DNA from: Nanobdellota archaeon
GTDB lineage: Archaea; Nanobdellota; Nanobdellia; Tiddalikarchaeales; Tiddalikarchaeaceae
Direction: 5' to 3'
DNA: 64,000 bases
Assembly (NCBI GenBank): GCA_016931175.1
Contig: JAFGFH010000011.1
Span: 2,854 to 66,853 of the forward strand
Part shown: positions 33,092 to 60,132 of the stretch, piece by piece
Numbering within the stretch: position 1 is the first letter of the stretch
Layout: every line of letters begins with the position of its first letter
Notes under the pieces: generated by a model
Told to the model about the DNA's origin: nothing
Seen by the model: only the letters and a program-made list of their open reading frames with translations
Database searches by the model: none
Translations under genes and position numbers: made by a program

Positions 33092-34741
33092 TTAATACTT
33101 ATTCGCTTCTTTTATTTCTTTCTTTACGAAAGCGTACACGATTATCAGGAAAAGAGTGAATCCTGTTATTAAAGAAGCATTAGTGGCGGTTCTCATAATC
33201 AAACCAGTGACTCCGTTGTCATAATAAGTTGTGTTTGCTTTTCCGTAAGCATTATTTCCCTCCATTACCACCTGGAAGGATTCAACACCGTATTCTTTAT
33301 GTATAAGCATTAAAGGTGTTAGCGTGAATGTTGAACTCTGGCCAGCGTCCAGCGTGAAACTCATATTGTCAATCTCATTATAAGCAAAGACGTGCATAGT
33401 GTAAGTGTTTTGTCTCGTACCATTATTATGAACAGTGACTTTAGTATTATTGTCAAAGAAGCTTGGCTGAAGCTCTAAAAATCCGTTGTAGCATTCACCG
33501 TAAGGCTTAACGTGCAGGGTTGCGCTGTCCTCTTTGGTTAAACTGCAGCTGTCAGTGCTCACGCTTAGCAAGTAAGCGGTTAAGTCTCCAGCTGGCAAGT
33601 CCACACCTGATAGTGTAATGTTCACCTTCCTGCCCGCGTCAACCTCGTAATACCTTGAGAGATTAGTTTCTCCAAACAAGAAGAATGCATCATAAGAGTT
33701 CTTCTTAACACCAGTGTTTTCTATTGTGAATGTAACGTTCTTAGCGTCACCTTCGCAGACATTGTTAAAGTCTTCATTTATCCAAACGTTCTGGTCATAA
33801 CAGTTCAACACGTTATAATTTACTGGAACAATAACTTCACCTAATAGTGAAGATTTTACTAGCAAGCTTGTAATCTTGTAACCCTTATCCTCGCAGCTGG
33901 TTGTTATATTAAATCTTATTATCTTGCTCTGCCCAGGGTTTAAAACGAAAAAAGTATCGTTTAATTCCAAAACCTTGCTCTTCGTTGAAACGTTGTAAAA
34001 GTCAGTGTGAACTCCTTCATTAGTTATCTTCAAACTATGAGTCTTCATATCCCCTTCGCATAATTCTATATCACTAACTTCGTATCCCATGAAGTCGCAG
34101 TCGCTTATGTTTAAGACGTACTCTTTATAGTCTGAGTAGAATTCATTCTCTGCAAGTATTTGCAGCCTGTTGTCATTAACGTCTTCTTCATAAAAAGTTA
34201 GAGGGTATTGTTTAACCTCTCCTGGTGAAACAATAGCAGTGAAAGAAAACCTGCCTGAGTTAACATTAATGCTCTCTTCATAAATTCCTGTATTCTCAAT
34301 ATTTAGTGTATAATTTATTCCCCCATTAGTGCAGTAACTTTCCTGTAAATCATTTACTGAAACGTTAAACAAGTGGCAGTTAGTGACGTTGAAATCGTAA
34401 TGGTAACTAGTCTTTCCTGTCTTTGAATTATCAACTATGATATTCAAGTCATAAACTCCTTTGAAAGGCAGGTAAGTTTCAAAACTTATCTTTTTAGACT
34501 CGCCGTTTGACAAGAAAAAACTAGTATCTCCTAATATGCTGGTGAATATTGCTGCTTTCCCTCCTGCAGATATCTCGTAATAAACGGGCGAACCCATGTT
34601 GTTATAAATAGTTACAGAATCTTTGAAATAAGTCTCGCTGCAAACCGTTGCAGCATTAGCTGCTGAGACTAAAAAAATAGTAATAAAGAAATAAAAAAGG
34701 AAGCGTTTCAAAGCTTTAAAGCGCCTCCTTATTACTTCCAA
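33092..34741 (-). CDS. secreted surface protein with repeated CARDB/NEW3-like beta-sandwich modules and C-terminal TM anchor
   Basis: Signal-like N-terminus 'FFITIFLVSAANA'. Repeated 'xxNTG/NEG/NNG + aromatic' strands ('IENTGIYEESINV', 'ITNEGVHTDFYNV', 'IENTGVKKNSYDA', 'VHNNGTRQNTYTM'). C-terminal TM plus a basic tail. Confidence 0.7.
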   Translation of the reverse strand: MEVIRRRFKALKRFLFYFFITIFLVSAANAATVCSETYFKDSVTIYNNMGSPVYYEISAGGKAAIFTSILGDTSFFLSNGESKKISFETYLPFKGVYDLNIIVDNSKTGKTSYHYDFNVTNCHLFNVSVNDLQESYCTNGGINYTLNIENTGIYEESINVNSGRFSFTAIVSPGEVKQYPLTFYEEDVNDNRLQILAENEFYSDYKEYVLNISDCDFMGYEVSDIELCEGDMKTHSLKITNEGVHTDFYNVSTKSKVLELNDTFFVLNPGQSKIIRFNITTSCEDKGYKITSLLVKSSLLGEVIVPVNYNVLNCYDQNVWINEDFNNVCEGDAKNVTFTIENTGVKKNSYDAFFLFGETNLSRYYEVDAGRKVNITLSGVDLPAGDLTAYLLSVSTDSCSLTKEDSATLHVKPYGECYNGFLELQPSFFDNNTKVTVHNNGTRQNTYTMHVFAYNEIDNMSFTLDAGQSSTFTLTPLMLIHKEYGVESFQVVMEGNNAYGKANTTYYDNGVTGLIMRTATNASLITGFTLFLIIVYAFVKKEIKEANKY

Positions 34742-36888
34742 TACTTTAATTCAACCTTTGACTGGTTGAATGATCTTACTCCTAAGAAGACAAGAGCTCC
34801 TATGAGTGCAATCCCAAGGATTATTGCACCCAAGCTTCCTGCCTCGCTTAGTGTTATTAAACCAGTAAGTCCTAATCCAGGATAAGACAAGGTGAGGTTT
34901 CCTGTTGAAACCACTTCTTTGCCGCTCATTACGTTGTAAGTAATGTCCTGAGTCATCTTGTTCTCTGGTTTAGCGTAGAGGTAAAACACTCCCTCTTCGC
35001 CGTTCATTATTGTTAAATCTGAAGGGCTTACTTGAATTTCTCCGTTGAAAGCATCAACGGATACTGAGTAAGTCTTGGTTGCTCCTTCAAAGTTTTGAAC
35101 TGCAACTTCAAATACTGCTCCTTCATCTCCTGACAAGTCTTGCAGAGTCTGGTTTAAAACAATTGTTGTGTTCTCTTTCTCTTTCTCCAATACTGTTATT
35201 GTAAAGTCGTCAGTGTCGCACTCGTAAGTTGTTAATGAACAAACCTCTGCTTCAACATTGAAAGCTCCAACCTCTGCAGTGTTGCTTATTAGTATTGGAA
35301 CTGTTATGTCAGTGCTTTGTCCTGCTAATAAGTAAACTCTCTTATCAAGTGAGGCGTAATTGCTTTCAACAGTTACTTGGTAGTATTCTGCAGTGTTTCC
35401 GTCATTCCTTACTTTTATGACGTTCTCGTCAGTATCCCCTTGCTCTAAGTACTTGTATTCCGTCTTCCATCTAGTGAATGGTGTGAAAACGAATGGTTCT
35501 ATGTAGATGTTTGTTACGGTTCCTGCAATAACGTCATCCTCTTTCAATATGTTCAGTGAGAAAGGAACAACTTCTTCCTCTGGAGCATTGAAAGTTACGC
35601 TTACGCTTCTAATCTGGTTCTTAAGCAGGTTGTAAGTGTTTCCGTAATTAACAGGGTCTTCGTCTCCTAAAACGTACTGGACTCTTACTCTCTCTGAGAA
35701 GTCTCCAGTGTTTTTAACCTTGAAGCTTACTGTTACTTCATCACCTGGCCTAATATCTGTTGGTGTTATATCAAAATCAAGGATGCTTATTTGACTTAAT
35801 AAATCACGAGTTTCAACAGTTACGCTGCCGTTTAATGATTGAAGAACTTGAGCTCCGTATTTCAAGTTTAGTTCTAACTGCTTTACTGGCGCGTCGCCTT
35901 CAACACCAGTTAGTGTTATTGTTCCTGTTCTTTCAGTGTTTGGCTGCAATAGTGAGGAATCGAATGACACGCTGGTTTCAAGCTCTGAACTTGCTGTTAC
36001 TGCAAAAGATGCAGGATAATCTCCTGTATTAGTTACAGTAAAGCTGCAAATTCTTTCAGCGCCTTCTTTTGCCTTGCAATTATCGTAATTGAATGCCATA
36101 CTTCCAGAACTTTCAATACTTACTGGCTGCCCGATTAACCAGACTCTTGCGAATCCCTGAGGTAAGTCCTGAACTGTCTGGTTAGTTCCTGTTACTTTTA
36201 CAACTAATACGTTAGCCAAGTCTGAGAACTCTGCTGAAGTGAATGATACTAGTTTGCTGCTTGAATTAGTGTTAGTAACTGTCATCGTATCTGTTTGTTT
36301 TGAAGTTCCTTGCCCGTCCATTGTTGGCGTGTAAAAGTCAACAGTGTAGATTACGTCTTCAACAGTGTTTACTTTGCTTATAGTATAACCAACGTTTATG
36401 TTGCCTGCTGTGATGTAAGAGCTTGGCACTGTTAATGTGCTGTTCCTGTTCAAGCTTGAATCATAACTGAACATTGCAGAAGCTTCAACTTGTCCGTTTA
36501 TTAACGCTTCAACGTAATAATCCCCTGTTGTTAGTCCTGACAATGATTTGGTTGCTGTGAAAGCACCGTCTAGCAACAAATTATTTGGATTCTCGTAATC
36601 ACTTACATAATTAATGCTTGTGATTGGTGTTGACAAACCAGGTCCTGACATTGAATTATAGAACCTTAGTGTTAGACTGGTTTTTGGAAGTGTTCCTTCA
36701 CCAGTTGTATGGTCTATGAAACCATATACTGTTAATGTGTCTCCTGGACCGTAAGTGCCCATTAACACATTAAGGCTTGCATCATATATTGGTTCTGCAG
36801 CGAAAACTGCACCAATTATGGCAAGAATTACTAATATTGAAAATAGTTTTTTCATCCTTGTTTCACTCTCGTGTATTAACACTTTCAA
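34732..36888 (-). CDS. secreted surface (S-layer-candidate) protein with repeated beta-sandwich modules and C-terminal TM anchor
   Basis: Signal peptide 'LFSILVILAIIGAVFA'. Thr/Ser/Val-rich. 'VTNTGDYPASFAV', 'VKNTGDFSERVRV' and 'VRNDGNTAEYYQV' strands. C-terminal TM 'GAIILGIALIGALVFLGV'. Overlaps the next gene by 10 nt. Confidence 0.7.
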   Translation of the reverse strand: MKVLIHESETRMKKLFSILVILAIIGAVFAAEPIYDASLNVLMGTYGPGDTLTVYGFIDHTTGEGTLPKTSLTLRFYNSMSGPGLSTPITSINYVSDYENPNNLLLDGAFTATKSLSGLTTGDYYVEALINGQVEASAMFSYDSSLNRNSTLTVPSSYITAGNINVGYTISKVNTVEDVIYTVDFYTPTMDGQGTSKQTDTMTVTNTNSSSKLVSFTSAEFSDLANVLVVKVTGTNQTVQDLPQGFARVWLIGQPVSIESSGSMAFNYDNCKAKEGAERICSFTVTNTGDYPASFAVTASSELETSVSFDSSLLQPNTERTGTITLTGVEGDAPVKQLELNLKYGAQVLQSLNGSVTVETRDLLSQISILDFDITPTDIRPGDEVTVSFKVKNTGDFSERVRVQYVLGDEDPVNYGNTYNLLKNQIRSVSVTFNAPEEEVVPFSLNILKEDDVIAGTVTNIYIEPFVFTPFTRWKTEYKYLEQGDTDENVIKVRNDGNTAEYYQVTVESNYASLDKRVYLLAGQSTDITVPILISNTAEVGAFNVEAEVCSLTTYECDTDDFTITVLEKEKENTTIVLNQTLQDLSGDEGAVFEVAVQNFEGATKTYSVSVDAFNGEIQVSPSDLTIMNGEEGVFYLYAKPENKMTQDITYNVMSGKEVVSTGNLTLSYPGLGLTGLITLSEAGSLGAIILGIALIGALVFLGVRSFNQSKVELKYWK

Positions 36889-36930
36889 GACGAAATTCTC
36901 TTTAAAAATATTTCGATATATTGCTTTAAA

Positions 36931-37104
36931 TCAGATTATAGTATAGGTTTCAAAGAGAGAAACTCGGTTTCTTTCATCTATTAAACTCTTAACATAGTCT
37001 AAATAAAACCTTTCTATCATGTCAATAATCTTCTTTCCAGCTTCACTATCCGGACTGCAAAAACTTTCATACTTAGTTAGTGTATATTCTTCAACAACTG
37101 ACAT
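36931..37104 (-). CDS. small hypothetical ORF (57 aa; below the track cut-off)
   Basis: Hand translation: MSVVEEYTLTKYESFCSPDSEAGKKIIDMIERFYLDYVKSLIDERNRVSLFETYTII*. An A/T box (TTTTTAAAATAAT on the minus strand) lies ~25-30 nt upstream of the ATG. The 5' end is duplicated at 37766..37871. Confidence 0.4.
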   Translation of the reverse strand: MSVVEEYTLTKYESFCSPDSEAGKKIIDMIERFYLDYVKSLIDERNRVSLFETYTII

Positions 37105-37148
37105 AAGAATACAAGAATAGGAAGGATTATTTTAAAAAGGTTTTCATT
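37045..37148 (-). repeat. direct repeat copy 1 (promoter + 5' end of the small ORF)
   Basis: Aligns with 37766..37871 over ~105 nt with few mismatches. See the corresponding finding. Confidence 0.85.
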
Positions 37149-37216
37149 AAGAATTGGAAATGCTTGACAACTATATTAAAACAAACTCAATGAACACGTG
37201 GCAAAAGAAATACTAA

Positions 37217-37483
37217 TTAAAAATACTTGCCGCAGACCTTGCAACTTGCGTTAAGATTTTTATCAATTGATGTAGCTCCTAGGATAATTGCATCGCACCA
37301 TCCGCAATAATAAAAACTTCCTTCATCCATGTACATCTCAAAATAAAACTCTCCTGAAGCTCTCTTCTCGGCATAATTCTCGGGATAAACACGGAAGAAA
37401 TCCTTTTCCTTAATATAATCATCTAAAGACATAATAGTATACTTATCTAAAGGTATAGTTGTCCACTTATCGCCAAACATCAC
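37217..37483 (-). CDS. small hypothetical protein with C-terminal zinc-knuckle pair
   Basis: 88 aa, with 'CGWCDAI...CKVCGKYF'. 4-nt overlap with the upstream ORF. Confidence 0.5.
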   Translation of the reverse strand: MMFGDKWTTIPLDKYTIMSLDDYIKEKDFFRVYPENYAEKRASGEFYFEMYMDEGSFYYCGWCDAIILGATSIDKNLNASCKVCGKYF

Positions 37484-37686
37484 GCGCGGTGAAACACCCT
37501 CCCTGCGCTTATTATAGCATCAAGTTCCTCATTCGTAGCGTTGTTCTTCCAGCGCACAAGTGCAGCATCACGTGCCTCATTATAACTCTTCAATAGAGCA
37601 ACATGCTGCTTCCACTTCTTGTCAATCCTGCGGTCCAAGAAACCTTCTGATATTCTCCCTATGAATCGCTTTAACTTACTTCTCAT
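37480..37686 (-). CDS. small basic helical hypothetical protein
   Basis: 68 aa, Arg/Lys-rich. Locally higher G+C than the neighbouring sequence. Confidence 0.5.
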   Translation of the reverse strand: MRSKLKRFIGRISEGFLDRRIDKKWKQHVALLKSYNEARDAALVRWKNNATNEELDAIISAGRVFHRA

Positions 37687-37765
37687 AATAAAGCAATTTT
37701 ATAAAAAGATTAGGTTATAAAGTTTTCGTAATAGCCTGAATCTTATAAAAAAATATCCATGAATT

Positions 37766-37871
37766 ACTTTCCAGACTGCAAAAACTTTCATACTTAGTTA
37801 GTGTATATTCTTCAACGGTTGACATAAGAATACAAGAGTAGGAAGGATTATTTTAAAAAAAAGTTTTCATT
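37766..37871 (-). repeat. direct repeat copy 2 (promoter + truncated 5' end of the small ORF)
   Basis: The minus strand gives MSTVEEYTLTKYESFCSLESNSW..., a 36-codon remnant (37715..37825). The copy extends across the GNAT stop codon (37867..37869). Confidence 0.85.
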
Positions 37872-38337
37872 TTTTAATCTTTAATCTCTTATACATCATA
37901 ACATAGCTCACGTCGTAACCTTTCTTCTTGTAAAAACTTATTAACTTCTCAGGTTCGCTGCTTACCGCGTACAAGTATACTGAACCTATTTTGATTTTTC
38001 TTGCATAATCTTCTATTGCTTTGATTAACTTATTGCCTATCTTCTTGTTCCTGTAATCTTTCAGGACGTAAACGTAGTCAATGAATAAGTATTTCTGGCC
38101 CTTCTTTAAGGTGCTGTACTCCTGCTTCTTAGCCTTCTTTAATGTGAATAAAGAGTATCCTATTAATTTATCATCTTCTTGTGCGACGAATAATCTAGAA
38201 TGTTTAATGCAGTTCTTTAAATAATTCCTAGACTCGCCTCCAACGTTTGATTCCTTTTCCCAAACCTCATCTAATGACTTAACCGCGTCAATGTCTTCAA
38301 TTATTGCAGGCCTTATTATCATATAATATTCACGCAC
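37867..38337 (-). CDS. GNAT family N-acetyltransferase
   Basis: Acetyl-CoA motif A 'YRNKKIGNKLIKAIEDYA'. 156 aa. Lies 4 nt downstream of thrS. Confidence 0.8.
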   Translation of the reverse strand: MREYYMIIRPAIIEDIDAVKSLDEVWEKESNVGGESRNYLKNCIKHSRLFVAQEDDKLIGYSLFTLKKAKKQEYSTLKKGQKYLFIDYVYVLKDYRNKKIGNKLIKAIEDYARKIKIGSVYLYAVSSEPEKLISFYKKKGYDVSYVMMYKRLKIKK

Positions 38338-38341
38338 TTAA

Positions 38342-40078
38342 TTAAATTAAATGCTTCAAGTTTCTATTCTTTATCTCTTCCAACAATTTCTTGGTGAACT
38401 CTTCCTTCTTGACTCCAAACTTAGGCTTTTTGTCTCCTTTCACTCTGACTGCTAAGGTCTTATTCTCTTCTTCCTTGTCGCCTATTACTATAATGTAAGG
38501 CACTTTCATTATTTCAGCATCCCTTACCTTGTAATTAACCGTCTTGTTCGACAAGTCTGACTCTGCCCTGATTCCTGACTCTTTAAGCTCTTTCACTAAT
38601 TTCTCAACTGCCTTAACATTGGACTCTGAGAAGTTAATCACTTTAACCTGCACTGGTGACAACCAAGTTGGCAGGTTAGCATTAGTGTGCTCTAATAGTA
38701 TTCCTATGAATCTCTCAACGCTTCCGTAAACAACGTGGTGAAGCATTATCGGAGTCTGAGGCTTGTCAGATTCATCAACGTATTCTAATTCGAACCTGTT
38801 AGGAGTGTTAAAATCTAACTGCAGTGTTGAACACTGCCATTCCCTGCCTAAAGAGTCCTTGATTAACAAGTCCAGGCTTGGACCGTAAAACTTCGCCTCT
38901 CCAGGTTCAATCTTAAAATTCATGCCCAACTTGTTCAAAGCATTGCTTAATGTCTTAATCGCGTTATTCCATACTGCGTCGCTTCCCAAATACTTGTCTT
39001 TCTTCTCCTCGCTTCTAGTGCTGAGTGAGAACCTGAACTCTTTAAACCCGAACATTTGATACATTCCTACGAATAATTTAACTATCCTGGTTACCTCACT
39101 CTCTAACTGTTTCTCAGTGCAGAAAACGTGCGCGTCATCCTGCGTGAATTGTATAACCCTGAAAAGTCCTGCAAGTGTTCCTGACAATTCAAGCCTGTGA
39201 ACCTTGCCCAGTTCGGATACTCTCATAGGCAGTTCCTTATAAGAGTGCGGCCTGCTCCTATATATCAGCATGCCTCCAGGGCAGCTCATTGGTTTCACCG
39301 CGTAATCAGATTCTTCATACTTTGTTAAGAACATGTTCTCCTTGTATAATCTCCAGTGCCCGCTTATCTCCCATAATCTCTTGTCCATTATCTGCGGTGT
39401 TGAAACCTCAGAGTAATTCTCACTCCTGTGCAATTCCCTCCATAACTCTACTAATTCGTTGAATATGATTAAACCATTACTGTGCCAGAACACCATTCCC
39501 GGAGCTACTTCGTTAAAGCTGAACAAGTCCAACTGCTGGCCTAATAATCTGTGGTCGTTCTCTTTCAATTTCCTGGAATCTATTCTCATCTTGCTGATAT
39601 CCCTTAGCATGTTCTTGCGCTCTTCTTCTGTTAAGTCCTCGCCAACCGTTTTCTTCAAAGTCTCAGCAGTGAATTCCCTGCTAAACTCTGCGAGTGGGTG
39701 GCCTTTGCAGGATACTGTGAACTTCTTATACCAGCCGAACGGCGCGCGCTTGACAGAGTATTTCTTTTTAAGTGCAAGTTCTGCCTTTTCTAAAACTTCC
39801 TGAGCGATTCTAGGATTAGCTAAACTATTTGACAAGTGAGCGTAAGGGTACAAGACTACATTACTCGTCTTCAATTGTTTTATAATATTATCAACTTCGG
39901 ACACTAATTTGTCAACGACTTGTTCCGGATTCTTCTCATCGTTTTTTTCAACACTCATGAAGACTACCAAGCACTCCTTCATCTCCTCAGCTTCCTTCTT
40001 AACCTCAGGAGCAGTTTTCAACGCCTTCTTAGTAGGCTCAAACTTGATATAATCCGAGTGCAGTGTAAGTATTCTCAA
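38342..40078 (-). CDS. thrS: threonyl-tRNA synthetase (archaeal type, N-terminal editing domain); TTG start
   Basis: 'MRILTLHSDYIKFEP' archaeal editing-domain start. Class II motifs 'FRVIQFTQDDAHVFC' and 'VVYGSVERFIGILLE'. By hand, the start codon is TTG with an in-frame TGA three codons upstream. Confidence 0.9.
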   Translation of the reverse strand: MRILTLHSDYIKFEPTKKALKTAPEVKKEAEEMKECLVVFMSVEKNDEKNPEQVVDKLVSEVDNIIKQLKTSNVVLYPYAHLSNSLANPRIAQEVLEKAELALKKKYSVKRAPFGWYKKFTVSCKGHPLAEFSREFTAETLKKTVGEDLTEEERKNMLRDISKMRIDSRKLKENDHRLLGQQLDLFSFNEVAPGMVFWHSNGLIIFNELVELWRELHRSENYSEVSTPQIMDKRLWEISGHWRLYKENMFLTKYEESDYAVKPMSCPGGMLIYRSRPHSYKELPMRVSELGKVHRLELSGTLAGLFRVIQFTQDDAHVFCTEKQLESEVTRIVKLFVGMYQMFGFKEFRFSLSTRSEEKKDKYLGSDAVWNNAIKTLSNALNKLGMNFKIEPGEAKFYGPSLDLLIKDSLGREWQCSTLQLDFNTPNRFELEYVDESDKPQTPIMLHHVVYGSVERFIGILLEHTNANLPTWLSPVQVKVINFSESNVKAVEKLVKELKESGIRAESDLSNKTVNYKVRDAEIMKVPYIIVIGDKEEENKTLAVRVKGDKKPKFGVKKEEFTKKLLEEIKNRNLKHLI

Positions 40079-40188
40079 AACATTTCACCTTTAATAATTC
40101 TAGAATATGAAACAGTATTTAAAACTAACTCTTTACTGGCGTGTGGGGCGATCAACTCGTTTCATGAATAATATTCTTATAAATAATC

Positions 40189-40209
40189 TTAATAAAAAAC
40201 TTTCTAAAT
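40189..40209 (-). promoter_or_regulatory. 21-nt motif TTAATAAAAAACTTTCTAAAT (copy A)
   Basis: Identical to 41667..41687. The minus strand reads ATTTAGAAAGTTTTTTATTAA, which is TATA-like. Confidence 0.35.
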
Positions 40210-41642: not shown

Positions 41643-41666
41643 TAGCTATTATTATTGAAGAAATTG

Positions 41667-41687
41667 TTAATAAAAAACTTTCTAAAT
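41667..41687 (-). promoter_or_regulatory. 21-nt motif TTAATAAAAAACTTTCTAAAT (copy C)
   Basis: Lies 25-45 nt upstream of the 41642 start (minus strand), in the divergent region shared with 41705..42328. Confidence 0.35.
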
Positions 41688-43678: not shown

Positions 43679-45235
43679 ATGAACGAAGAACAACTGCATA
43701 AAAATGCATTATACTCATTAAATGGATCTATTGCTGATGCGAGAACGCAGTTAAGACGGCAGGGTGAAAAAGAGTTGCCTAATTACGTTGACGACTTTGA
43801 GCATTACATTATTGAAAAAGAAGGGCAAAGACTCTTGTTATACCCTACCGGCTTTTACGAATGCAGCGATGGAAATAACCGCGTCGCGGGAGTGTGCTTG
43901 GCTTATCACAAAGGAGGAGGCTTCATAATCGGAGGGTTTGTGTATGATGATAAAGAATTACTGGCCAGTCCAATAAAACACCCCTGCCATGCAGGAGGAG
44001 AATTCGGAGAGATTGGCATGCTAATGACTATTAGAAACTTAATGACTTACCTGCACCCGAATCTAAGACTATCTGCACCTTTCCAAGTTATACCTCATAT
44101 TAATAATGCTGTACAGGAGAGCGCTATGAGTAAAGGATTTACAATTAACGCCTTCAGGGAAGAACAAGAGTCAATACTAGAATTATCACTTAACAAATAC
44201 TTAGATAATTATTTAGCAATCAAAAAAGAAGGGAGTGATATTAGCAGAGGATTAATGTTTGACATACTGGGCAATTTCGTTAATTACGTTAACATCATAG
44301 GTGAAGAAGCGCTTGAAAGACTAGTAGACAACGTATCAGAGCCAGTATTCATGCCAATACTTGACGCCTTATGCGATGAGCAATTTACGGAAACAGGTTA
44401 CCCTATACTCAGCAGTTTCATAATTAAATCAGGAACGAAAATATTAAACAATCTCTTAAAAAACCAACCAAGAAGTGCAGTAAAAGAATTATACAAGTAT
44501 CACGTAACAATAGACGGCGAGCTATTTATACAATTTAAAAAATCTGAAAACCCCTCACTAAACGGGGCAATAAAATACTTATCCTTAAATGATTTGATAA
44601 ACAACCTTTCAAATTTTGAAGCAAAGATGATTAAAAAACTTGACTTGAACAATTACGGGGAAAAGTATAATAATCTTATTTGTGACGGATTAGGTTCTAT
44701 TCCTGAATCAATAACTAGACTGGTTAACTTAGAAGAATTAAGATTAAACAGGAATCCATTATTCAAATTCCCGGAAGAGATACTTGAATTAAAGAATTTA
44801 AAGTCTTTAATGATACAGAATATTAATATAAACGCATTACCTGAACGTATATACTTGTTATCAAAACTTGAAGATTTAACTATATCTAACAATAATTTAA
44901 AGTGCTTGCCTGAATCATTTTGGAACCTGAAAAATCTGAAAATATTAGATATAGTTGAAAATGAAATAAAGTCCATACCAGAAAGTATCAGAAACCTTGC
45001 AAATCTAAAACAATTATTTATAGGCAGCAACCCTCTCACTAATGTTCCGGAAGATATTGGTAATCTTTCAAAACTAGAATTTATCAGCATGCTTGGATTA
45101 AAAATAGAGGCAGTGCCGGATAGTATTATAAACAATTTTAGTACACCTGCTATTGAATGCCACTGGTACCGCAATGACTCTAAATCATTAAAAGAGTTCA
45201 ATTCTTTCATGATAAAACAGATCAAAGACAGATAA
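43679..45235 (+). CDS. leucine-rich repeat (LRR) protein with unknown ~330-aa N-terminal domain
   Basis: About seven 23-aa repeats of LxxLxxLxLxxNxLxxLPxxIxxL (e.g. 'LVNLEELRLNRNPLFKFPEEILE', 'LKNLKILDIVENEIKSIPESIRN'). No signal peptide or TM. Confidence 0.8.
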   Translation: MNEEQLHKNALYSLNGSIADARTQLRRQGEKELPNYVDDFEHYIIEKEGQRLLLYPTGFYECSDGNNRVAGVCLAYHKGGGFIIGGFVYDDKELLASPIKHPCHAGGEFGEIGMLMTIRNLMTYLHPNLRLSAPFQVIPHINNAVQESAMSKGFTINAFREEQESILELSLNKYLDNYLAIKKEGSDISRGLMFDILGNFVNYVNIIGEEALERLVDNVSEPVFMPILDALCDEQFTETGYPILSSFIIKSGTKILNNLLKNQPRSAVKELYKYHVTIDGELFIQFKKSENPSLNGAIKYLSLNDLINNLSNFEAKMIKKLDLNNYGEKYNNLICDGLGSIPESITRLVNLEELRLNRNPLFKFPEEILELKNLKSLMIQNININALPERIYLLSKLEDLTISNNNLKCLPESFWNLKNLKILDIVENEIKSIPESIRNLANLKQLFIGSNPLTNVPEDIGNLSKLEFISMLGLKIEAVPDSIINNFSTPAIECHWYRNDSKSLKEFNSFMIKQIKDR

Positions 45236-57386: not shown

Positions 57387-58724
57387 TTATAAAAACTTCC
57401 TTACTAATTTGGAATACTCATCAAAATACTTGTTTAGAGATGTTTTATTGCTGGCTTCAACCGTTAACCTTATAACTGTTTCAGTGTTGCTCGGCCTTAT
57501 AAGAACCCAGTCCGTATCGTTTAAGAAAATCTTTACGCCGTCAACAGTGTTTGCATCATTTTTTTTGCACAATTCTTGTTTAATTTTTTCAAAGGCTTCA
57601 AACTTGTGCTCGTGGTCTTTTGCCTGAAACTTGGCATGCTTTATGGGATAATCAGGCAGTTCCTTAACCATTGCTGAAAAAGGTTTATCACTATCTGATA
57701 AAATCTTTGCAAGCTTCGCGCAAGCAAGTATCCCGTCACTGAACGGGTAAAAGTCGTTAAAATGGAAGTGGCAGCTGACCTCTGCGCCGAACATTCCCTT
57801 ATTATCTATCAAGCCGTGGGACAAACTGGTTAAACCAACAGGGCACCATACAATATTTCCTTGATTCTCTTCAACAACTTTTTTCAAAACACTGCTCATG
57901 TCAACGCTTGCAACTATGTAAGCGTATTTGAATTCTTTCAAAACCTCTCTTGCGAAAAAACAAGCCATCCTGCTGCCGTCAACAAATTTTCCTTTATCAT
58001 CAACGAATACGCACCTGTCTCCGTCTCCGTCGAACGCGCATCCGAAGTCAGCCTTAGCTTCAACAACTCTTTTCTGAAGAAAACCGAGATTCTCTTCTTT
58101 AGGCTCCGGTTTCCTGTTAGGAAAGTGGCCGTCAGGTTCAGCGCTGATGTTAATAACCTCGCAGCCCATTTCTTCAAAGAGTTTAGTTGCAGCAAAACCT
58201 GTTGTTCCGTTGCCGTAGTCGAGGACTATTTTCAAACTTTTGCTTAGTTTAATCTTATCCTTAATATTGTCAACGTATTCTCTTACTGCGTTATCATCGG
58301 TCTCTACTAGTCCAATCTCATCCCACTCAGCGCGGTCGAATTCTTTTTTCAAAAACTTTTCTTCAATCCTTCTAAGCCTGTCATTATAAACAACTCCCCT
58401 CTTGTCATAGAATTTTAAACCGTTAGTATCAGATGAAGTATGGCTGCCGGTAATGGTTACGTTCTCAACCTGGTGTTTTACGCCGTAAAAGTTTGAGACT
58501 GGTGTTGGAACAACTCCTATGTCAACGATGCTGCAGCCTGAAGCTGAGAATCCTGCCAGGAAAGAGTTCTTTAATATTTCAGAACTGGTTCTGACATCTC
58601 TTGCAATGCTAGCCTTTTGTTTTATAAGATTAGCATAGCATGAAGCAATAACGACAACGTCTTCTGGAAGAAGCTCTTTGTTAAAAACTCCCCTTACATC
58701 ATATGATTTGAAAGGGTTCATCAT
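57387..58724 (-). CDS. alpha-D-phosphohexomutase family protein with non-canonical phosphoserine loop
   Basis: 'AFDGDGDR' Mg loop and 'IRPSNTETVIRL' phosphate loop. The active-site loop is 'TITGSHTSSDTNG' instead of TASHNP. Confidence 0.75.
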   Translation of the reverse strand: MMNPFKSYDVRGVFNKELLPEDVVVIASCYANLIKQKASIARDVRTSSEILKNSFLAGFSASGCSIVDIGVVPTPVSNFYGVKHQVENVTITGSHTSSDTNGLKFYDKRGVVYNDRLRRIEEKFLKKEFDRAEWDEIGLVETDDNAVREYVDNIKDKIKLSKSLKIVLDYGNGTTGFAATKLFEEMGCEVINISAEPDGHFPNRKPEPKEENLGFLQKRVVEAKADFGCAFDGDGDRCVFVDDKGKFVDGSRMACFFAREVLKEFKYAYIVASVDMSSVLKKVVEENQGNIVWCPVGLTSLSHGLIDNKGMFGAEVSCHFHFNDFYPFSDGILACAKLAKILSDSDKPFSAMVKELPDYPIKHAKFQAKDHEHKFEAFEKIKQELCKKNDANTVDGVKIFLNDTDWVLIRPSNTETVIRLTVEASNKTSLNKYFDEYSKLVRKFL

Positions 58725-58797: not shown

Positions 58798-60132
58798 TTA
58801 ATAGATGAGTTTTAGAATCTTTTTTTTCTTCTCTTCCATTAATTCTTTGCTGTCTGCTTCAAGGTTTAACCGTATCAAGGGTTCAGTGTTTGATTTCCTT
58901 AGATTAAACCACCAGTCTTTGAATTCAACGGTTATGCCGTCCAAATGAGTTGTTTTTCCATTCTTGTAAGCGTTCTCAATTCTTGCAATAACAGCGTCTT
59001 TGTCTTTCACTTCCCTGTTAATTTCTCCAGTGTGATAGTATTTCTTGAAGCTCTTGATAAGTTCTGAGAGTTTCTTCTTCTCTGATGATAATAAAGAGAG
59101 TATTATAACCACTGGTATTGCTGCTGAGTCTGTGAAGAAGTTGTCTTTGAAATAGTAGTGCCCGCTCATCTCCCCGGCGAAGAGCACGTCTTCTTTTTTC
59201 ATACGAGTCTTTATGAACGAGTGCCCGACTCTTGAAACTAAGGGTTTGCCTCCAGAGTCTTCAATAACTTTTTTCACTGACTTTGTTGAGCGCAGATCAT
59301 ACATTATCTTTGCACCTTTATTCTTATTTAACATTTTTTTTGCAATGAGCGCAGTTGTTATGTCTCCAGGTATTCTCTCTCCTTTCTCGTCCACCATTAC
59401 TACCCTGTCAACGTCTCCGTCGAATGCGAATCCTATGTCTGCTTTTTCTTTCACTACTCTTTTCTGCAGGTCTTTCATGTTCTCTTCATCGAATGGGTTG
59501 GCGTCATGGTTTGGGAACGTGCCGTCTAATTCCTCATACATTGGGATTAGTTTAATATTGAATGATTCAAGCAAGGGTATTATTGTCTTACCTGCCATGC
59601 CGTTCCCGCAGTCAATAACTACTTTAAGCTCTTTAATATTGTTAGCGAATGATTTAACATAGCTGACGTATTTTTCCAGAACATTTTCAGTTTTTAATGA
59701 GCCTTTTTCTTCAGCATCTTTGAAGTCTCTTGCTTCAACCATCTTCTCTATCTCTTTAATTCCAGTGTCAGCGTTTAAAGGAACTGCTTTCGATTTTACC
59801 ATTTTCAAGCCGTTGTATTTTCCAGGGTTGTGCGATGCTGTTATCATTAGTCCAGCGTCTGCTTCTAATTCGTTCACTGCGTAGTAGAACATTGGCGTGC
59901 TTGACAATCCAATATCTATAATTTCGGCTCCTTGTTCAAGCAAGGCTTCTGTTAATGCGTTGAACAAGCTGGGCGAGCTAATTCTCATATCCCTTGCAAC
60001 AACTACTTTCCTGCATCTTATGAAGTCCATGAAGGCTTTGCCTATTCTGTATATTATTTTCTCGTTAATCTCTGAAGGGTATAATCCTCTTATGTCATAT
60101 GCTTGGAAGATGCTCAATCTACTCCTCTCCAT
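58798..60132 (-). CDS. phosphomannomutase/phosphoglucomutase (or phosphoglucosamine mutase)
   Basis: Canonical 'ITASHNPGKYNG', 'AFDGDVDR', 'GEMSGHYYF' and 'LRKSNTEPLIRL'. Confidence 0.85.
   Translation of the reverse strand: MERSRLSIFQAYDIRGLYPSEINEKIIYRIGKAFMDFIRCRKVVVARDMRISSPSLFNALTEALLEQGAEIIDIGLSSTPMFYYAVNELEADAGLMITASHNPGKYNGLKMVKSKAVPLNADTGIKEIEKMVEARDFKDAEEKGSLKTENVLEKYVSYVKSFANNIKELKVVIDCGNGMAGKTIIPLLESFNIKLIPMYEELDGTFPNHDANPFDEENMKDLQKRVVKEKADIGFAFDGDVDRVVMVDEKGERIPGDITTALIAKKMLNKNKGAKIMYDLRSTKSVKKVIEDSGGKPLVSRVGHSFIKTRMKKEDVLFAGEMSGHYYFKDNFFTDSAAIPVVIILSLLSSEKKKLSELIKSFKKYYHTGEINREVKDKDAVIARIENAYKNGKTTHLDGITVEFKDWWFNLRKSNTEPLIRLNLEADSKELMEEKKKKILKLIY

Follow-up and report, generated by a model that had tools for sequence, protein, structure and literature searches.

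We analysed a 64,000-nt stretch of contig JAFGFH010000011.1 (hereafter the window; G+C content 37.6%), in which two small minus-strand genes, p68 and p88, are bracketed by two copies of a 104-106-nt direct repeat. Statements on uniqueness refer to this window and to the collections scanned. In minus-strand order, the locus comprises the gene for ThrRS, a GNAT acetyltransferase gene, repeat copy 2 with a 36-codon remnant open reading frame (ORF), p68, p88, a 68-nt spacer, repeat copy 1 with the intact small gene p57, and the gene for the surface-type protein S718. The interval between ThrRS and S718 (36856-38341) is referred to as the slot, and the 617 bp between the repeat copies (37149-37765) as the cargo. 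The features are as follows.

38342..40078, minus strand: ThrRS, threonyl-tRNA synthetase of archaeal type, which is conserved and anchors the slot on its upstream side
37867..38322, minus strand: GNAT acetyltransferase, 151 aa counted from ATG, the upstream neighbour
37766..37871, minus strand: repeat copy 2, 106 nt, from the alignment and promoter geometry
37774..37816, no strand assigned: 43-nt identical core of copy 2, a candidate crossover segment
37715..37825, minus strand: 36-codon remnant or decoy ORF, from the ORF list, codon score and T runs
37480..37686, minus strand: p68, 68 aa, an ORF with a borderline coding signal
37217..37483, minus strand: p88, 88 aa, an ORF with host-like codon use
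37149..37216, minus strand: spacer of 68 nt from the p88 stop to copy 1, with T-rich runs TTTCTTTTG and TTTGTTTT as possible termination signals
37045..37148, minus strand: repeat copy 1, 104 nt, from the alignment
37053..37095, no strand assigned: 43-nt identical core of copy 1, the partner of the copy-2 core
36931..37104, minus strand: p57, an intact, acidic, leaderless small gene of 57 aa, the positional resident of the ThrRS-S718 slot
34732..36855, minus strand: S718, a 707-aa surface-type protein with a signal/transmembrane segment and Ig-like repeats, the conserved downstream anchor of the slot

A duplicated promoter-start block

A blastn search of 36900-37950 against the window aligns 37766-37871 with 37045-37148 at 97/106 equal columns (91.5% identity, E 8.3e-38) and yields no further match of the region better than E 0.016. 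The copies differ by 7 substitutions and a 2-nt T-run indel (9/106 columns), with the differences located at AAC/GGT (37096-98), at an A/G site in the spacer, at the T-run indel plus a C/T site, and at two sites on the low-coordinate edge. The longest identical run between the copies is a perfect 43-nt core (37053-37095 = 37774-37816), which occurs exactly twice in the window, compared with an expectation of 0 from 100 shuffles. Outside both edges of the repeat no residual similarity is left, with local alignments at shuffle level (p 0.81 and 0.16), and the cargo is single-copy in the window by blastn, the duplicated part being the 104-106-nt block only. A whole-window repeat scan found no other repeat of this kind, and a 26-mer and a 25-mer of the core are absent from GTDB representative genomes and from IMG/VR, respectively. 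The repeat is a real, locus-specific, one-off local rearrangement.

An inverted-repeat scan of 36900-37950 returned only short AT-rich matches, none of them at the cargo ends, and neither the ORFs of 36.9-37.9 kb nor the 18 flanking proteins, within ~10 kb, include a transposase or an integrase. The original prediction, made from the letters alone, had described a ~105-nt direct repeat with the differences listed above, its decay on the low-coordinate side, an A/T box upstream of an ATG with ~17 common codons, the 57-aa, 36-codon, 68-aa and 88-aa (CxxC...CxxC) ORFs with a 4-nt overlap between the cargo genes, a copy 2 that covers the GNAT stop, and the lack of a transposase or integrase; all of these descriptions hold. 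The check for locus-specificity that it proposed, carried out by blastn and in the genome collections, finds two copies in the 64 kb and none in GTDB representatives or IMG/VR.

The window belongs to a 68-kb contig of a metagenome-assembled genome (MAG), and we therefore asked how far the deposited arrangement can be trusted. Two Logan contigs (run SRR13394437) match the window at 100%, of which one ends at 37787 (37817-30) and the other starts at 37082 (37052+30). Logan unitigs are built at k=31, and these breaks are the exact k=31 nodes of a core that has two contexts on either side, which must then be present in the raw data. Furthermore, the Logan contigs carry copy-2-specific bases beside GNAT and copy-1-specific bases beside p57. 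Since identical runs never exceed 43 nt between copies that differ at 9/106 columns, an assembler with k above 43, or reads of at least 100 nt, would find unique paths and resolve the locus. On the other side, exact-protein look-up in Logan, ENA and JGI recorded p57, p68 and p88 (88- and 87-aa forms) from the NCBI record only, while Logan also has the genes for GNAT, NTase and S718 from the flanks. It is thus the deposited contig that ties the cargo to both copies. Taken together, the sequence data argue that the duplication is not an assembly artefact, and the idea that a metagenome assembler used the shared core to join separate loci or strains is extremely improbable.

The content of the repeat can be read against the other genes of the window. 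Among 49 long window genes, TTTA[AT]A peaks at -28..-34 from the ATG (16 hits, versus 0-2 at any position outside this band), and these TATA-bearing genes carry no Shine-Dalgarno (SD) motif; operon-internal genes have GGAG or GAGGTGA at -12..-17 instead. A TATA box with its transcription factor B recognition element (BRE) close to the ATG, in combination with a missing SD motif, is the signature of leaderless mRNAs, which are established archaeal biology. Both repeat copies have the arrangement AATGAAAAC-(T-run)-AAAATAAT-21 nt-ATG, with the TATA box at -32, and this geometry agrees with that of the other window genes. Specifically, copy 2 consists of the BRE-like AATGAAAAC (37871-37863, including the GNAT stop TGA at 37869-37867), a T8/TATA box (37862-37847), a 21-nt spacer, an ATG (37825-37823) and 17 shared codons, while copy 1 consists of a BRE-like element (37148-37140), a TATA box (37138-37126), an ATG (37104-37102) and the first 17-20 codons of p57. 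Each copy is thus a full leaderless expression unit of archaeal type that begins at the upstream edge of its BRE and reaches codon 17-20.

In addition, over their initial 65 nt both predicted transcripts have less structure than shuffled sequences (z +1.55 and +1.87; weaker folding than in 189 and 199 of 200 shuffles), in keeping with open, leaderless 5′ ends. A leaderless promoter is not usefully duplicated without its ATG, which explains the coding sequence within the repeat. Downstream of copy 2, the remnant ORF is composed of MSTVEEYTLTKYESFCS followed by 19 unrelated codons; its tail is non-coding-like with many T runs (for example, T7 at 37753-37747), and its codon score of -0.003 lies in the non-coding range.

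A second case of promoter reuse occurs elsewhere in the window. A 41-nt direct repeat (80% identity; 40169-40209 and 41647-41687) shares the BRE/TATA sequence AGAAAGTTTTTTATTAA, and its copies precede the ThrRS region and a 212-aa gene at 41642-41004. Downstream of the ThrRS-side copy (40133-40165) lies a leaderless 10-codon mini-ORF, MKRVDRPTRQ*, which is followed by a second TATA box, a GGTGA SD motif and the TTG start of ThrRS.

The cargo genes and their slot

The cargo genes p68 and p88 lie on the same strand and overlap by 4 nt (GTGA, 37480-37483). p68 is basic (pI 10.7) and is predicted to form a long helix and a short helix (model pLDDT 74.6); p88 is acidic (pI 4.65) and ends in a zinc-ribbon-like CxxC-17-CxxC tail. 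A Foldseek search with the predicted p68 model gave 0 hits in the PDB and no viral hits with E<6, and the p88 model is too poor for searching (pLDDT 48.7). The codon-usage log-odds of p88 (0.30) and p57 (0.24) are higher than those of all 80 spurious ORFs of similar size. Part of the cargo had been noted as richer in G+C than its surroundings, and the rise is real (0.47 at 37450-37650, versus a window mean of 0.376), but it is no sign of foreign DNA: whole host genes span 0.30-0.46, ThrRS windows reach 0.49-0.51, and the case for a foreign origin made from G+C is rejected, as composition and codon use are both inside the host range.

Searches for relatives of the cargo returned next to nothing. 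A word-index search of 5.8 billion proteins with p88 and p68 found only the proteins themselves, and IMG/VR scans with p88, p68 and p57, as well as tblastn against phage and plasmid collections, found no match. An exhaustive phmmer search of 1.84 billion representatives with p88 matched only RCC1-repeat and Ig-repeat proteins, which we regard as artefacts with scores summed from many weak repeat matches to 'MDEGSFYYCGW'. Scans of GTDB representatives gave no match for p57 and p68 and two for p88, both spurious (one inside an acyl-CoA synthetase, the other antisense to a CTP synthase). NCBIfam and PADLOC have no match for the cargo proteins, PHROGs has a single non-significant one for p68 (phrog_24304, E 0.069), the PDB has none at a meaningful level for either protein, and Rfam finds nothing in 36700-38100. 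By these comparisons p68 and p88 are orphan, lineage-specific small genes.

The marginal Pfam match of p68 deserves separate description. p68 matches Swi5 (PF07061) at 22.8 bits (E 1e-4), passing the gathering score of 22.1 by 0.7 bit, over 24 of 80 profile positions that contain the motif LLxxYNExRD (LLKSYNEARD). Reversed and scrambled p68 controls give no Swi5 match, and a YNExRD mutant of p68 loses it, indicating that the match depends on the motif and not on composition. BLASTP of p68 against S. pombe Swi5, whose sequence was checked against 3viq_B, aligns KQHVALLKSYNEARDAAL with QKHIDLLHTYNEIRDIAL (13/41 identities, pairwise E 7e-6). In a phmmer search of the PDB with p68, the unrelated Med19 outscores Swi5; p88 has no Mei5/Sfr1 match in Pfam; and we found no report of an archaeal Swi5 in the literature, the family being eukaryotic to our knowledge. 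True Swi5 membership of p68 is therefore doubtful, in our judgement roughly one chance in four. Should p68 prove to be a real RadA cofactor of Swi5 type, it would have implications for how the recombination mediators of eukaryotes arose.

The host can be placed through ThrRS, which has an archaea-specific editing domain. Because its closest relatives are at most 64% identical and come from Woesearchaeota, Nanoarchaeia and Pacearchaeota MAGs, the host is a DPANN archaeon of the Woesearchaeota/Nanoarchaeia type with no close relative in the collections. The order ThrRS-[slot]-S718-S549-tRNA-intron endonuclease is kept in relatives whose S718 is 31-65% identical, and what occupies the slot differs among them. 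Specifically, the slot is empty in three (L040, L042 and L087), holds one 49-65-aa same-strand ORF with a leaderless promoter in four (L004, L006, L007 and L085), and in L086 (3234-4833) holds a PIF1-type helicase and an 86-aa membrane protein. In the closest relative, L084 (S718 65% identical), the contig stops 129 nt before S718 and ends '...LYIKYLKESRTRMYSSEK*', which resembles the C-terminus of p57 and lies directly upstream of the S718 promoter. The ThrRS/surface-protein junction is thus a lineage-variable slot in this DPANN lineage.

None of the relatives examined has a GNAT gene at the slot, the duplication or the two cargo genes. The sole GNAT relative found is 63% identical and lies in an unrelated neighbourhood. 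The comparison with related genomes that had been proposed as a check bears out a variable slot, but gives no GNAT-promoter-57-aa locus free of cargo: a true empty site was not found, and the nearest relatives, 53-65% identical in neighbouring proteins, are too distant. BLASTP aligns the p57 N-terminus to a helix of the relatives' slot ORFs (E 0.023). The homology of p57 to these ORFs is positional and weak, and suggestive only, and we regard p57 as resident in the slot by position, short of proof that it belongs to their family.

Several further observations concern the slot and the rest of the window. The N-terminal VVEEYTLTKYESF of p57 resembles its own MIERFYLDYVKSL, a possible internal repeat, and each of the two is similar to ILEEYTLAVVD, a helix conserved in the slot ORFs of relatives. 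The slot of L006 (9797-10231) also has an opposite-strand 81-aa ORF. S718 has a promoter and SD leader of its own (36856-36925), and its promoter and ~50-nt leader are conserved in L004, L006, L040, L042, L084, L085 and L086, with proteins 31-65% identical; the aligned upstream regions read ATATCGAAATGTTTTTAAA ... ATCACGAGGTT, the latter SD-like and ~10 nt ahead of the ATG, a layout that contrasts with the leaderless majority of window genes. Elsewhere in the window are tandem paralogues on the minus strand (57387-58724 and 58798-60132; 445 and 444 aa), which share a 90-nt stretch of 76% DNA identity, and a 518-aa leucine-rich-repeat protein on the plus strand (43679-45235; LRR_14 and LRR_8, E 1e-18 to 1e-11).

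Origin of the arrangement

We prefer, with about even confidence, a locus-specific duplication-insertion at the 5′ end of resident p57. According to this explanation, p57 would have resided in the variable slot and, in common with most genes of the window, relied for its expression on a leaderless unit whose BRE, TATA box, ATG and first codons form one indivisible module. The ~617 bp with p68 and p88 would then have arrived at the 5′ end of p57, so that the 104-106-nt module came to stand on both sides. We infer a single event, in which either DNA was inserted at (widely) staggered breaks that were then filled in, or there was one crossover in the 43-nt core with a DNA circle that bore a diverged copy of the module; our confidence applies to these two routes jointly. 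The promoter and start of p57 would stay intact, and the upstream copy would start a leaderless transcript that opens with the 36-codon decoy ORF. If this transcript passed three oligo-T tracts, it would extend into p68 and on into p88, a gene with a start/stop overlap and the SD-like GGGAGG. Insertion at the 5′ end of the small gene had been the simplest reading of the original prediction too; the intact p57, the small slot ORFs of relatives and the p57-like end of the L084 contig favour it, whereas an empty site is missing and the direction and mechanism of the event are what we infer.

A number of observations weigh against this explanation. The collections hold no empty site and no second instance. 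The 7 substitutions and the 2-nt indel mean either that the copies differed from the outset or that they are old, and in the latter case the retention of cargo between 43-nt identical repeats needs selection or low recombination. We know of no enzyme that yields ~105-bp target duplications. In an HMM (hidden Markov model) search built on the relatives' slot ORFs, p57 ranks 2 of 1647 ORFs, but with an E of 1.1, and the codon score of p68 (0.17) is borderline, with 4% of spurious ORFs higher. The remaining points concern expression. Between the copy-2 ATG and the p68 ATG, T5, T7 and T5 tracts lie within 140 nt, compared with 0.18 expected from gene bodies; oligo-T tracts are archaeal termination signals, and these three may terminate transcription ahead of the cargo. 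The start of p68 follows a 28-nt gap, has no SD motif, and its sole TATA-like box begins at -19, ~12 nt too close. Copy 2 has an intact set of promoter elements, and p88 has GGGAGG 14-17 nt upstream of its start, which overlaps the p68 stop (GTGA/TGATG). The earlier proposal of a duplicated promoter that has come to drive the cargo is thus doubtful in view of the T tracts and the SD-less, mis-spaced start of p68; expression from copy 2 is conceivable by read-through, but unsupported.

Three other histories were rejected. An old tandem or paralogous gene duplication with decay does not fit 42 identical coding nt, including all synonymous sites, next to adjoining sequence at random level. Plain tandem duplication is excluded by a single-copy cargo. 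Transposition of an insertion sequence (IS) or a miniature inverted-repeat transposable element is excluded by the lack of inverted repeats at the cargo ends and of a transposase within ~10 kb, by the repeat length of 104-106 nt, and by the uniqueness of cargo and repeat in the window and the collections scanned.

Two other origins have to be set against duplication-insertion. The copies might be the attL and attR sites of a decayed or non-autonomous site-specific integrative element, similar to a cis-mobilizable element (CIME), which targeted the 5′ end of p57, brought its own replacement promoter-start and was recombined within the 43-nt core by an integrase encoded elsewhere or lost. Such a layout is known from tyrosine-recombinase elements, including those with the rarer 5′-end targets, and from CIMEs that retain att sites without integration genes (PMC5704250). 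It would account for direct repeats that flank cargo, with a perfect core between diverged arms, for an intact p57 that takes its promoter, ATG and opening 17 codons from copy 1, and for slot cargo that differs between lineages. Yet no integrase lies within ~10 kb, 617 bp is far below any described element, and cargo and repeat are absent from IMG/VR, GTDB representatives and the phage and plasmid collections; the similarity of 104-106 nt also exceeds the 8-60 bp usually quoted for att identity (PMC5704250), and, given 9 differences between the copies, a perfect run of 43 nt is no more than mildly unusual (p~0.08, a rough estimate). We consider such an element unlikely. The reverse order of events, in which p68-p88 already lay between GNAT and p57, poorly served by any promoter, until illegitimate recombination or template switching set a copy of the p57 promoter-start block in front of them, is also improbable. 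Reuse of promoters upstream of unrelated genes is common, with >4000 families and pairs typically ~92% identical (PMC3575422), capture of promoters through microhomology-mediated rearrangement readily activates silent acquired genes (PMC6614815), and a leaderless promoter must bring its ATG and first codons, which would explain the 17 duplicated codons. However, the classical tandem-duplication route leaves two copies of the captured gene where the cargo here is single-copy, the block would need to land exactly at the GNAT stop, and the oligo-T tracts with the SD-less gap before p68 make a poor activating arrangement.

What the cargo does is a question apart from its route of arrival. A toxin-antitoxin (TA) pair or another defence or selfish two-gene module, as had been suggested from the compact shape, would suit small overlapping genes of opposite charge that are lineage-specific and sit in a variable slot. 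But TA and defence families are normally widespread, whereas this cargo has no homologues; PADLOC, NCBIfam and the PDB give no meaningful match, the marginal Swi5 match in Pfam and the PHROGs match (both p68) being all there is; and the GNAT neighbour is of the generic RimI/Acetyltransf_1 type, with no antitoxin upstream. The suggestion is thus unsupported and very improbable, and the rearrangement is no recognisable mobile element, TA pair or defence system. A bolder proposal would make the 617-bp insert a miniature cassette that uses the 43-nt core to recombine into a leaderless gene at its 5′ end, bringing along its own promoter-start module, with p68 as a Swi5-type RadA mediator, the first outside eukaryotes, and p88 as its zinc-ribbon partner; we regard this as a long shot. 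If excision or circular forms exist, the locus would represent a tiny att-flanked cassette in archaea. As it stands, the locus is a single instance with orphan cargo, and the Swi5-like motif or a mini att-flanked cassette are the only possibilities through which it might become more notable.

Comparison with known systems

The target-site duplications left by transposons resemble the locus in that target sequence is directly duplicated on both sides of inserted DNA. Such duplications measure 2-15 bp and occur together with a transposase and terminal inverted repeats. At this locus the duplicated sequence is 104-106 bp, inverted repeats and transposase are lacking, and the element is single-copy. 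With type II TA modules the cargo shares small, co-directional, overlapping genes, and no recognisable TA family is found in it. To the Swi5/Sae3 proteins, which are Rad51/Dmc1 mediators (S. pombe Swi5, PDB 3viq), p68 is alike in being small and two-helix, with KQHVALLKSYNEARDAAL close to the family signature QKHIDLLHTYNEIRDIAL. It differs in being an archaeal orphan that covers 24 profile positions only, and its neighbour p88 is beta-rich with a zinc ribbon, no Sfr1/Mei5-like partner being present.

CIMEs and integrative and mobilizable elements at gene ends (PMC5704250) share with this locus the flanking direct repeats, the identical core, the diverged arms and a hotspot slot between conserved genes. 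The differences are the 617-bp size, the longer repeat, the lack of an integrase nearby and of a second copy in our scans, the archaeal host, and a target that is a 5′ end including its promoter.

There is also a likeness in layout to promoter reuse and capture (PMC3575422 and, for capture events seen in experiments, PMC6614815), where a ~92% identical promoter segment precedes two unrelated coding regions, no IS is involved, and expression of newly acquired or silent genes is plausible. Putative mobile promoters, the subject of Matus-Garcia, Nijveen & van Passel 2012 as cited in PMC3575422, are defined there by at least 80% identity over at least 50 nt within -150..-50 ahead of unrelated coding sequence, with similar coding starts excluded. 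The present block has 91.5% identity over 106 nt and unrelated coding sequence after codon 17-20, but its promoter lies at -47..-1 and the similarity enters the ORF. The block also runs 17 codons into the gene, a consequence of the fusion between promoter and start codon that characterises leaderless genes of archaea, and its copies bracket cargo. The rnk-citT capture behind the Cit+ phenotype of the long-term evolution experiment, cited in both PMC3575422 and PMC6614815, differs in turn, as no tandem second copy of the cargo exists here and copy-2 drive of the cargo is doubtful (T tracts, no SD).

The locus offers a clean natural example of promoter duplication in a genome that uses leaderless mRNAs. 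As a promoter of this type cannot move without its start and first codons, rearrangement would leave a decoy N-terminal ORF before newly placed genes. The feature belongs to a known general class, promoter duplication or capture with gene gain, of which it is the leaderless-archaeal form.

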